A stretch of 18,358 nucleotides of DNA from an uncultured archaeon (lineage in GTDB: Archaea; Altiarchaeota; Altiarchaeia; JAFGQM01): contig CAZQBY010000001.1 of the NCBI GenBank assembly GCA_964592405.1, forward strand, positions 1 to 18,358, written 5' to 3'. Made by a program: the position numbers and the translations under genes. The first letter of the stretch is position 1, and each line of letters starts with the position of its first letter. Below, piece after piece: positions 63 through 2,875 of this stretch. The notes beneath the pieces were generated by a model. The model was not told the DNA's origin. It ran no database searches and worked only from the letters and a program-made list of their open reading frames with translations.

Positions 63-305
63 GCGCTCTTCAAAGGCATATCCGCGCGCAGACTGTTCTA
101 GCGATTTCCTGAACTCAGCGTCAAGGTCTCGCGGAATCACGTCTGGTCTGCAGGCAAGTTCTACCGCTCGGTCGGCAACGTCACCGCCGACACGATCAAG
201 CATTACATCGCCTGCTCGCAGGGAATCTGGTGCGAAGAGCCAGTTGACTTAGCCAATGCATGTTCCGCACCAGGCCAAACAGCCATGAGCAATTTCATGG
301 CGTGA
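63..305 (+). pseudogene. tnpA: IS200/IS605-family Y1 (HUH) transposase TnpA, C-terminal remnant
   Basis: Frame 63-305 reads ALFKGISARRLF*RFPELSVKVSRNHVWSAGKFYRSVGNVTADTIKHYIACSQG...FMA*. It has the TnpA KG.S.R, W..G.FY.SVG and catalytic Y (YI...Q) motifs. In-frame TAG at 99-101; the N-terminal HUH half is absent (stop at 51-53). Not in the ORF track. Confidence 0.85.
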
Positions 306-318
306 GCCTGCTACGGAG

Positions 319-350
319 ATACCCCGGCATTCATGCCGGGGAGTATGTCA
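319..350 (+). mobile_element. IS200/IS605 right-end subterminal hairpin and terminus
   Basis: Perfect inverted repeat CCCCGGCAT (322-330) / ATGCCGGGG (333-341), then AGTATGTCA ending at 350, just after the tnpA stop. Typical IS200/IS605 right-end layout; sequence turns AT-rich after 350. Confidence 0.8.
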
Positions 351-434
351 TTTTGTAAGAATTTTCTTACTTTATTTTGTTGTCGGTTCTATAAAAAGCT
401 AACATTTTGGTGCTGTTAAGTTAAGCTGACGGCT

Positions 435-716: not shown

Positions 717-866
717 TCATGAAGGCTCAACAGCGTGTCGGATAATCCCCATGTTGCAGGACCTGGTTTTTGTGCACCAATCTTGGCATTTTTCCGCCCA
801 TTTTTTGTCCTTAAAGAACATCTTGCAAGCTTCGCACTGATAAAGTCCGTCAACCTCTTTTACCAT
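717..866 (-). CDS. 49-aa Cys-rich small protein, putative zinc finger
   Basis: MVKEVDGLYQCEACKMFFKDKKWAEKCQDWCTKTRSCNMGIIRHAVEPS*. ATG at 866, TGA at 717-719, 24 nt downstream of the helicase stop. Zinc-finger-like YxCxxCxxxF(x8)CxxxC pattern. Below the ORF-track length cut-off. Confidence 0.8.
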   Translation of the reverse strand: MVKEVDGLYQCEACKMFFKDKKWAEKCQDWCTKTRSCNMGIIRHAVEPS

Positions 867-890: not shown

Positions 891-2096
891 CTACTTGTAA
901 GAGCGATTTCCACGGTAGTTCCGCCTTGGTTTTTTTCCGCGATAGCCCCTGCACTTTTCGTTTCTAGAGCGGCTGAGCTGCTTTATCCTCCTGACTTTGG
1001 GCGGTCGCTTCATGTGTATGTTCCCGCCATAGTCCCTGTTGATGTTGCGGTAGTTGTTGTGGTCGCGTGAAGTCAAGAGTGTGATAGCATCGCCCTTTTC
1101 TCCTGCGCGCGCTGTTCGGCCTATGCGGTGCAGATACTCCTTGGCGCTGCCGGGTACGTCATAGTTGTAGACATGAGTCACATTCTTGATGTCCAAACCG
1201 CGCGCGGCCACGTCCGTGGCCACCAGAACATCTATCTTCTCCTTCTTGAGCCGGTCCAGGGACTCAAGACGTTTGTTCTGCTTCATCCCGCCGTGTATCG
1301 AAGACGCGTTTATGCCCTGGTTTCGCAGGTTGCGCGCGACGAAATCGGACTCGGTCCTAGTCGCGCAGAATACCAGGGCCAGCCCGGGAGTCTCTTTCTT
1401 CAGCAGATGCACCAGTATCGATAGCTTGTCCTCGTTGTCATATATGTCGTAGCAGGTCTGCCTGAGCTTGTCCGGGTCCACTTGGGGCTTGGTCCTTATC
1501 AGCTCCGGGTTGTGCATGTGCCTCTCCATTATTTTGTAAACGTCGTCGGAGATGGTCGCGCTGAACATGGCGGCCTGTATGTCGCTGGGGGTGTGGCTGA
1601 TTATGCGTTCCACGTCCTCTATGAAACCCATGTCGAACATGCGGTCGGCCTCATCAAGGACGAGGAACTTGAGATCGTAAAAATCTATAGTCTTCCTGTC
1701 TATGTGGTCCAGTATGCGCCCAGGCGTTCCCACCACCACATTGGCTGTCTTCAACTCCCTAATCTGCGGACCTATGCTCACACCCCCGTATATCCTGGTG
1801 GTTTGTATGTCAAGCGGGTCGCCGAAGTCGGCGAAGACGTCCGCCACCTGGATGCACAGCTCCCGGGTCGGAGTCAAAACCAGAACCTGCAAACCGTCAT
1901 CGGGGTATACTTCGTTCATTATGGGGAGGACAAATGCCAAGGTCTTGCCGGAGCCGGTCTCGGCCTGGCCCACCACGTCCCTGCCTTCCAGCATCAGGGG
2001 TATGCACTCCTCCTGGATGGGAGTGAGCTCCTCAAAACCAAGCTCGTTGGCTATCTCCAAAAACTCCTTGTCTATGTCTAAATCCGAGAATTTCAT
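891..2096 (-). CDS. deaD: DEAD-box ATP-dependent RNA helicase (DeaD/CshA-like)
   Basis: Q motif (GFEELTPIQ), AETGSGKT, PTRELC, GG, TPGR, DEAD, SAT, ATDVAARGLD and HRIGRTAR; basic C-terminal tail. Confidence 0.97.
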   Translation of the reverse strand: MKFSDLDIDKEFLEIANELGFEELTPIQEECIPLMLEGRDVVGQAETGSGKTLAFVLPIMNEVYPDDGLQVLVLTPTRELCIQVADVFADFGDPLDIQTTRIYGGVSIGPQIRELKTANVVVGTPGRILDHIDRKTIDFYDLKFLVLDEADRMFDMGFIEDVERIISHTPSDIQAAMFSATISDDVYKIMERHMHNPELIRTKPQVDPDKLRQTCYDIYDNEDKLSILVHLLKKETPGLALVFCATRTESDFVARNLRNQGINASSIHGGMKQNKRLESLDRLKKEKIDVLVATDVAARGLDIKNVTHVYNYDVPGSAKEYLHRIGRTARAGEKGDAITLLTSRDHNNYRNINRDYGGNIHMKRPPKVRRIKQLSRSRNEKCRGYRGKKPRRNYRGNRSYK

Positions 2097-2140
2097 CTTG
2101 AAATGTCAAACATCGCGCGCAGGGGGCTCGACAGAATGAG

Positions 2141-2230
2141 GCGCAACCGCGCCCTTTCAGAGAGTTGCGCAAAGAAACATCCGAAGATGTTTGTCTTGCA
2201 GCTGACTTTTCTCAAGGTCCGCGGTTGCGC
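2141..2230 (-). ncRNA. Structured four-way-junction RNA in the helicase 5' leader
   Basis: P1 GCGCAACCGCG/CGCGGUUGCGC (11 bp, perfect); P2 GACCUU-GAGA-AAAGUC; P3 with AAACAUC-UUCG-GAUGUUU; P4 CUCU-CUGAA-AGGG. The UUCG and GNRA loops read correctly only on the helicase strand. Confidence 0.7.
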
Positions 2231-2249
2231 ATGTTTTATAGGTTGGAGG

Positions 2250-2256
2250 ATAAAAA
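2250..2256 (-). promoter_or_regulatory. Putative TATA box for the helicase leader
   Basis: Minus strand TTTTTAT, beginning about 26 nt upstream of the 5' end of P1 (2230), consistent with archaeal TATA-TSS spacing. Confidence 0.5.
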
Positions 2257-2452: not shown

Positions 2453-2875
2453 ATGGTCGACATAGTGCGCGCATACAAGAACCCGGAGAAGCACGCGCAG
2501 GAGCTCGAAATCAGCAAGATAGTCGCGGATGAAAAGGTCTGTGAGGAGGGCGTCAGGCGATATGTCCAACTCATCAGAGAGGGTGCGGCCATCAAGCCTA
2601 TAATAGTGGTCAAGCATCCCAGTGTGGAGGAATACGCCGTGCTGAACGGCCATCATCGCTTTTGGGCCTACAAAGAGCTTGGGGTTGAAAAGATCAGGGC
2701 TGTGGTGGTGGAGGATCTGACAGGCCTAGGATTCCACATGACCAAGAACGGCCATCTCCAGCCGCCGGCCGGCTTCACGAGATACATCAGGATACCTGCC
2801 AAGGAATTCCAGAGCTATATTGAGAAGTTCTGGAAGGACCCGGGAGGTATGCTGAGAAGGCAGGTAAGGAGATGA
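2453..2875 (+). CDS. Stand-alone ParB/sulfiredoxin N-terminal-domain protein
   Basis: IKPIIVV...YAVLNGHHRFWAYKELGVEKIRAVV matches the ParB/Srx GxxR arginine patch; no HTH and no parA nearby. Confidence 0.8.
   Translation: MVDIVRAYKNPEKHAQELEISKIVADEKVCEEGVRRYVQLIREGAAIKPIIVVKHPSVEEYAVLNGHHRFWAYKELGVEKIRAVVVEDLTGLGFHMTKNGHLQPPAGFTRYIRIPAKEFQSYIEKFWKDPGGMLRRQVRR

Follow-up and report, generated by a model that had tools for sequence, protein, structure and literature searches.

A genus-restricted, predicted hairpin leader on the message of an archaeal DEAD-box RNA helicase

Bacterial messages such as ompA, ermC and aprE carry stem-loops that act as stabilisers at the 5' end of their leaders, and the deaD message of M. 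burtonii has a long leader. In Thermococcus kodakarensis, the mRNA of the DEAD-box helicase TK0306 has a mapped 159-nucleotide (nt) 5' untranslated region (5'-UTR) with a tRNA-Lys inside it, and the abundant sscA RNA lies within the 118-nt 5'-UTR of TK0308 (PMC4247193). In Methanolobus psychrophilus, translation rose about 3-fold when a stem-loop at the 5' end of a leader was removed (PMC5499594). Long 5'-UTRs stabilise the cold-induced mRNAs of Anabaena crhC and E. coli cspA, and M. burtonii deaD is listed as cold-regulated (PMC1484253). Here, we analyse an 18,358-nt stretch of DNA (the window) from an uncultured vent archaeon, in which a 90-nt element lies between the promoter and the start codon of a DEAD-box RNA helicase gene. 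We hold, with moderate confidence, that this element would be the 5'-terminal part of a helicase mRNA leader of about 130 nt, and that a cis-acting hairpin and a conserved single-stranded linker in this leader would affect the stability or translation of the message.

How does this locus compare with what has been described? Like the TK0306 leader, it would place an unusually long leader on an archaeal DEAD-box helicase message, with a compact, structured first part made from the helicase promoter. In the Thermococcus case, however, this part is a genuine tRNA that is found by tRNA finders and processed by the tRNA machinery, whereas here it is an unbranched predicted rod; the two leaders have no sequence relationship and come from different lineages. 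With sscA the element would share the standing of a conserved, structured and lineage-restricted RNA in an archaeal 5'-UTR, but sscA is an Rfam family found upstream of a translation elongation factor gene, and no similarity to it was detected. The M. psychrophilus leaders, too, are long archaeal 5'-UTRs, in which a 5'-terminal stem-loop lowers translation and its removal or processing raises both translation and stability; they belong to ribosomal-protein and chaperonin operons with mapped processing sites, whereas the leader described here is predicted from sequence. The likeness to crhC and cspA lies in an extended leader on a helicase gene, with transcript stability as its supposed mode of action, but in those messages stability depends on temperature, while the rod found here is predicted to be insensitive to temperature in the mesophilic range. 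As a kind, then, a structured 5' leader on a helicase message is known; what is new is a genus-restricted leader that belongs to no known family.

The element is read on the minus strand, from 2230 down to 2141, in a 356-nt gap between the helicase gene and a divergent ParB_N-like gene. The locus had been singled out in an earlier reading of the sequence alone (the original prediction), which saw there a cis-regulatory RNA folded as a cloverleaf in the leader of a DEAD-box helicase. The letters read exactly as quoted there, and the downstream gene is indeed that of a DEAD-box helicase. The features that matter for the argument are the following, all on the minus strand.

891 to 2096, minus strand: DEAD-box RNA helicase gene, 401 amino acids (aa), Pfam DEAD 2.5e-54 and Helicase_C 1.4e-32, with a short basic C-terminal tail
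2250 to 2256, minus strand: TATA box TTTTTAT of the helicase promoter, with an A-rich BRE-like stretch before it
2231 to 2249, minus strand: promoter spacer, poorly conserved, with an A/T-rich TATAAAA (2240-2234) just before the predicted transcription start
2141 to 2230, minus strand: predicted rod-like hairpin with small internal loops, 33 consensus base pairs (bp), from the minimum free energy (MFE) fold and the three-species consensus
2220 to 2230, minus strand: 5' arm of the basal stem P1 (GCGCAACCGCG), perfect 11-bp complement of 2141-2151
2141 to 2151, minus strand: 3' arm of P1 (CGCGGUUGCGC), pairing with 2220-2230
2169 to 2199, minus strand: apical hairpin (P3 of the original prediction) with a UUCG cap at 2185-2182, common to the rod and the cloverleaf
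2097 to 2140, minus strand: 44-nt linker between the hairpin and the AUG, nearly invariant
2093 to 2113, minus strand: short upstream frame with its AUG at 2113-2111, encoding MFDISR-stop, whose UGA overlaps the helicase AUG (AUGA)

Folding calculations indicate that the element most likely forms one long interrupted hairpin rather than a cloverleaf. Its MFE fold is a single rod of -41.8 kcal/mol, against -24.9 +/- 3.3 kcal/mol for 200 dinucleotide shuffles, none of which folds as well (0/200; z -5.07). The versions found in two sister species of the genus are also rods, at -36.9 kcal/mol (z -5.84) and -38.6 kcal/mol (z -6.13). Under the same parameters the cloverleaf reaches only -34.7 to -35.3 kcal/mol, about 7 kcal/mol worse than the rod, and in the ensemble its P2 and P4 pairs have probabilities of at most 0.0005, versus 0.57-0.95 for the cross-pairs of the rod. 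Of the fold first proposed, the perfect 11-bp P1 (2220-2230/2141-2151) stands, while the four-way junction does not; the inner C-UUCG-G hairpin is present in the window, but its loop is CUCG in one of the three species. UNCG loops are stable.

The pattern of change among the three species follows the rod. Their RNAalifold consensus is unbranched, with 33 pairs of which four are compensatory (7:84, 25:67, 30:63 and 40:54): the column pair 7:84, in P1, goes from C-G to U-A in both sister species, and 40:54, in the apical hairpin, from A-U to G-C. In the sister species the apical hairpin has also lost 2 nt on each strand, in matched deletions that preserve its register, and in one of these species a C-to-U change together with a 1-nt deletion turns a bulge of the rod into six contiguous pairs. 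Variable columns make up 12 of the 66 paired positions of the rod versus 13 of the 24 unpaired ones (Fisher p 0.0014). The rod consists of helices of 2-7 bp set on the 11-bp base, and the same fold is the MFE structure from 20 to 70 C (-54.5 kcal/mol at 20 C, -41.8 at 37 C and -16.8 at 70 C). One of these helices, 4 bp at columns 14-17/75-78 and 3 bp in the sister species, is flanked by 2x1 and 1x2 internal loops; read by eye, this does not match the archaeal bulge-helix-bulge processing motif, in which two 3-nt bulges on opposite strands flank a 4-bp helix. No K-turn motif was seen on inspection of the predicted fold by eye.

Where would this RNA begin? Across the genome, TATA-like hexamers peak 28-33 nt before ATGs, and one is present at -37..-25 in 222 of 941 crude open reading frames (ORFs), versus 37 in a control window. 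Because of this pile-up the messages of this genome would be mostly leaderless or nearly so, and a helicase leader of about 130 nt is unusual among them, as had been proposed. The helicase TATA box, correctly placed by the original prediction at 2256-2250, reads TTTTTAT or TTTTTAA in both sister species in the alignment of the three. When the genome's own TATA-to-ATG spacing is applied to the TTTTTAT at 2256, the predicted transcription start falls at about 2223-2230, among the eight bases with which the 5' arm of P1 begins. The 19-21 nt that follow the TATA box diverge among the three species by substitutions and 1-2 nt indels, and conservation resumes at the second base of the stem. In one sister species the upstream neighbour is a different, co-directional gene, and there the similarity seen by BLAST sets in with the stem's first base; despite this different neighbour, the order TATA, hairpin, linker, helicase is identical in all three. 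The A/T-rich region close to a promoter is the stretch that melts initially, a part that the TATAAAA of the spacer may play here. The helicase AUG has no TATA-like box 25-35 nt ahead of it, and between hairpin and AUG the minus strand has no promoter-like or terminator-like site, position 2141 and its surroundings included. The stem is followed by CTCATTCTGTCGAGCC, with no oligo-T tract. A transcription attenuator or intrinsic terminator was ruled out: no T run follows the stem, and no terminator-like site lies at about 2141.

The element is restricted to one genus. In its own assembly (1.13 Mb, 87% complete) it is single-copy, the next-best match being 14 nt long. A miniature inverted-repeat transposable element (MITE) or other dispersed repeat, which the original prediction had raised as a way to be wrong, was ruled out, since there is one copy and the sister species carry the element at the same locus only. 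BLAST of intergenic DNA across 61 genomes, to which the class and phylum scopes both amount, detects it in its two sister species alone (E 2.9e-49 and 5.9e-32), with all remaining matches at E of at least 0.0082, and a covariance model of the rod finds it in 3 of the 61, all in one genus. A gapped-motif scan of species-representative genomes returned only the two sister species, and a metagenome scan with a 22-nt invariant word of the linker returned a single contig, which is identical to the window and ends inside the hairpin. A pattern scan of viral contigs and BLAST against phages and plasmids gave no match. No Rfam 15 family was found at gathering scores in the whole window, and searches of 601 and of 168 bases at E as high as 10 found none either, in keeping with the earlier statement that the element fits no recognised family, and ARAGORN found 0 tRNA genes in the window. 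Six DNA runs labelled hydrothermal vent metagenome contain part of the stretch; of the four examined, one covers 2100-2250 without a difference, and none of the four has variants that would add covariation.

Within the genus, the element changes more slowly than neutral positions. Among the three species pairs the helicase proteins are 84-92% identical, and the fourfold-degenerate third positions 54-62% (103/174, 85/158 and 100/161). The hairpin, with gaps counted as differences, is 78-84% identical (76/90, 70/90 and 68/85) and the 44-nt linker 91-95% (42/44, 42/44 and 40/44), which is on par with second codon positions. By this comparison of sequences, the element is under selection, in three related species only. 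Outside the genus, the orthologues of three other species of the family (two of one genus, g2, and one of another, g4, at 71-75% protein identity) have TTTT(T)AT 88-93 nt before the ATG and no homologous hairpin, so the long leader appears to be common to the family, with the rod added in one genus. In a neighbouring family the box lies about 40 nt before the ATG.

The linker itself has no significant structure (folding z +0.12 to +0.95 against shuffles, with the AUG region included). The 3' end of the 16S rRNA reads ...GGATCACCTCCT, and no complement to it, and hence no Shine-Dalgarno match, is visible in the linker. What the linker does contain is the short upstream frame, whose AUG is kept in the three species and whose stop falls 0-3 nt from the helicase AUG (MFDISR*, MFDI* and MFDVS*). 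Because third positions of this frame hardly vary, the constraint on the linker seems to act on nucleotides and not on a peptide. A possible role for the frame, suggested by its position, is termination-reinitiation coupling on a leader that has no Shine-Dalgarno site. Two other candidates were ruled out here. A 40-codon frame is open through the leader of the window, but indels of -5 and -7 nt shift it and one sister species has an in-frame stop. Likewise, RNAalifold predicts a hairpin over the AUG region in which four purine transitions keep pairing, but this hairpin is broken in one species and, as a structure that would occlude the AUG, is no more stable than shuffles.

To put these elements together, we envision that transcription would start about 26-33 nt past the conserved TATA box, just inside the 5' arm of the stem. 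The initial 85-90 nt of the RNA would form a single long hairpin with interruptions, its base burying the 5' end, to be followed by the single-stranded, near-invariant linker of 44 nt and then by the AUG. This hairpin would work in cis and post-transcriptionally, protecting the 5' end from 5'-to-3' decay and/or setting the translation of a leadered message that has no Shine-Dalgarno site, and the linker would serve as a sequence-specific site for the ribosome or a regulator. In this way the leader probably tunes the stability or translation of the helicase message. The arrangement would resemble that of ompA, ermC and aprE, with a stable hairpin that leaves few or no bases unpaired at the (here predicted) 5' end of a long leader, and then single-stranded RNA up to the start codon. 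Three beta-CASP proteins are encoded in the genome: an RNase J-family protein, an aCPSF2-like protein (453 aa) and one of aCPSF1 size (634 aa). The RNase J-family protein has 433 aa and matches TIGR00649 at 358.9 bits, under the cut-off of 400. Archaeal RNase J has 5'-3' exonuclease activity, and this is the kind of 5'-end-dependent nuclease that hairpins of the ompA, ermC and aprE type block. Unlike in those leaders, the hairpin here is much longer (about 90 nt), its 5' end is predicted and the archaeal decay machinery is different.

The helicase itself could be part of the circuit. Because the rod is built of short helices on its 11-bp base, it is a plausible helicase substrate, and the enzyme would then act on the rod of its own message in a negative feedback; we regard such a feedback as a possibility raised by the model. 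A bolder version, which we consider unlikely, would make of the leader a gauge of helicase activity. With scarce helicase, the cap at the 5' end would stay shut and the mRNA would escape RNase J-type decay; with an excess, the cap would be opened and the message destroyed or silenced, the linker tethering the basic tail of the enzyme.

Several points weigh against the leader reading, or limit it. By itself, a perfect 11-bp stem is within reach of chance: perfect inverted repeats of 11 bp or more, with spacers of 3-100 nt, number 42 in the genome, against 20-29 in five first-order random genomes. The element is also only about the 22nd most stable among distinct 90-nt places when 16,554 windows of that length are scanned across 107,833 bases of non-ORF DNA. 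Its opposite strand folds to -44.1 kcal/mol (z -5.88), and as well or better in two of the three species; wobble pairs are few and favour neither strand. The assignment of the strand therefore rests on context, and the case as a whole on conservation and context, given the unremarkable stem, the rank in stability and the equal folding of the other strand. The comparison involves three sequences only, the four compensatory pairs perhaps represent just two or three events, the covariation score of the rod is matched by 23 of 500 shuffles, and the rod structure used in counting paired and unpaired variable columns came from the same alignment. In the closest pair, those upstream intergenic pieces that BLAST can align are likewise 78-80% identical, which leaves the hairpin with only a modest excess over flanking DNA in that pair. 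The four remaining family genomes with the helicase have no such hairpin in their orthologous leaders, so the hairpin would be dispensable for helicase expression as such. On the transcript side, both the start of transcription and the RNA itself, with its 5' end, are predicted, and among the sequencing runs searched no RNA run contains the stretch. A start within the range 2223-2230 could take away 0-7 of the 11 bp of P1. Binding or unwinding of the rod by the helicase, finally, is a proposal from the model only.

A few observations from other genera touch on this promoter region. GC-rich palindromes occur about 50-90 nt before the ATG, near helicase promoters or leaders: TTGCGC...GCGCAA in genome G003, and a perfect 12-mer palindrome, TTCGCGCGCGAA, near the helicase promoter of genome G005. 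They are similar in style to the GCGCAA/TTGCGC arms of the element. In G005, a genome of the same family as the window's, the helicase orthologue has genes for tRNA-Ala(UGC) and tRNA-Lys(UUU) about 480 nt upstream, with other sequence in between, and this tRNA-Lys recalls the one inside the T. kodakarensis helicase leader.

Could the element be a cloverleaf after all, either tRNA-like or binding a ligand or protein at a four-way junction in which P1 encloses P2, P3 and P4? The Thermococcus helicase leader holds a genuine cloverleaf, its tRNA-Lys, and the alignment is compatible with one here: 94.7% of cells are paired and there are 4 double changes, including 12:27 in P2 (G-C to A-U), with 44/500 shuffles as good. 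The rod scores 97.0% of cells and 4 double changes, with 23/500 shuffles as good, and such pair counts alone do not separate the two folds. What does tell against the cloverleaf is its energy, about 7 kcal/mol behind the rod at 10-70 C, and its improbable P2 and P4 pairs. Furthermore, P4 is reduced to three invariant pairs in sister species, the P2 pair 15:25 breaks in one, and variable columns do not avoid its stems (16/64 paired vs 9/26 unpaired, p 0.44). As a mimic of tRNA it also fares badly, with nothing from ARAGORN or the Rfam tRNA model (RF00005) and a tRNA near the helicase in 1 of the 26 loci scanned with ARAGORN, the window's own included, and about 480 nt away there; the closing stem has 11 bp versus the 7 bp of a tRNA acceptor, and the P4 loop is UCUGAAA versus UUCRANY. 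We consider the cloverleaf quite improbable. A mimic of rRNA, also suggested at first, finds no support: both rRNAs lie on one contig, and the longest word that the element shares with it is 10 nt, which is chance level. An RNA thermometer or cold sensor, in which melting or refolding with temperature would switch helicase translation, appears very improbable. The G+C of rRNA correlates with growth temperature, and values of 53-54% for the rRNA and 49% for the genome suggest a non-hyperthermophile, for which stress from cold is conceivable in the vicinity of vents. An association of long leaders with cold-induced DEAD-box helicases is seen in several organisms (PMC1484253, PMC4247193), and the weak hairpin drawable over the AUG keeps its pairing through four purine transitions. 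Yet the rod, still at -16.8 kcal/mol and in the same MFE fold at 70 C, is too stable to melt physiologically and contains neither the AUG, which lies 44 nt outside, nor a Shine-Dalgarno site, while the linker and AUG region is no more structured than shuffles and the hairpin drawn there breaks in one species.

Another candidate is an independent, stable small RNA that would be transcribed from the helicase promoter and either be cut from the message or end before it, in which case the helicase would be expressed from a processed downstream fragment. The T. kodakarensis 5'-UTRs of TK0306 and TK0308, with their tRNA-Lys and sscA, are precedents (PMC4247193); a closed rod with a perfect base of 11 bp has the form of a stable RNA that resists nucleases, and the invariant linker could contain a processing site. 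We nonetheless find this unlikely, as no Rfam family or tRNA matches, no oligo-T or terminator-like site follows the hairpin, and the element is single-copy in one genus only, with no trans target in the genome (the best other matches are of 12-17 nt, at E of at least 0.59). The element could also act as DNA, as a promoter-adjacent palindrome that serves as operator or cruciform, or it could be the functionless, fixed remnant of a palindromic insertion. That both strands fold equally well, that the element comes directly after the TATA box, that its absence from the leaders of other genera resembles an insertion of about 90 nt, and that GC-rich palindromes (TTGCGC...GCGCAA and TTCGCGCGCGAA) lie near helicase promoters of two other genera would all fit. 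But the arms are 68 nt apart, unlike a dimeric operator, and the inner palindrome TTGCGCAA is not enriched, with 9 occurrences in the genome versus about 17 expected by our own estimate. Viral, phage and plasmid collections hold no match, and an active mobile element is not what a single, syntenic copy indicates. The compensatory changes, the indels matched on both arms and the bias of variation to loops point to selection on pairing, and conservation well above that of fourfold sites speaks against a neutral remnant, so that we give the DNA explanation little credence, about as little as the cloverleaf. Of what was first proposed, a cis-regulatory leader RNA is the part that stays as the best reading, on account of conservation above neutral, compensatory changes and the position from TATA to AUG; its four-way junction, mimic and thermosensor versions do not. 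Homologues upstream of orthologous helicases exist, with compensatory pairs, in the two sister species, but not in the four other family genomes that have the helicase.

Turning to the surroundings, the helicase is a generic DEAD-box enzyme, whose top NCBIfam matches (CshA, DbpA, SrmB and CsdA) each fall under the cut-off and whose N-terminus, MKFSDL..., is kept in orthologues. A 49-aa cysteine-rich ORF (MVKEVDGLYQCEACKMFFKDKKWAEKCQDWC..., 717-866, minus strand) begins 24 nt past the helicase stop on the same strand; it may encode a small zinc-binding protein and share the helicase transcript. On the other side of the gap lies the divergent gene:

2453 to 2875, plus strand: ParB_N-like gene, divergent from the helicase

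The GC-rich part of the intergenic region, 2268-2452, looks like the leftover of a plus-strand gene start, with an ATG at 2307 that opens MKRLAAFMA... and closes after 38 codons. In the sister species G002 the homologous start (MKRVALLLAMSLLLFGTASA..., signal-peptide-like) opens an ORF of 157 aa, and about 7.5 kb more genes lie between the points that match positions of about 2350 and 2334 in the window. Given this longer ORF and the extra genes, about 7.5 kb appears to have been lost from the genome of the window at about 2334-2350, or gained by G002. Near the end of the contig, 239-364 (plus strand, and also 215-360 on the minus strand) is a full-length, sub-threshold match to the Rfam HgcC family RNA (27.3 bits against a gathering score of 50, E 0.00038). 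No 90-nt window of the genome's non-ORF DNA was found to be more stable than the one here (-49.4 kcal/mol); the 146-nt stretch at this place folds to -58.2 kcal/mol (z -4.24) and may be an unannotated archaeal non-coding RNA.

Regulation through 5' leaders is poorly charted in archaea. Here, the small and mostly leaderless genome of an uncultured vent archaeon would keep a leader of about 130 nt on one gene, and this leader offers a small and testable case of possible post-transcriptional control over an RNA helicase. The general picture does not change unless feedback by the helicase is shown; if the leader did gauge helicase activity, an archaeal helicase would have a feedback circuit of a new sort, encoded purely in RNA. 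Seen beside the Thermococcus helicase leader with its tRNA, the element hints that structured 5' ends may recur on the messages of archaeal helicases.

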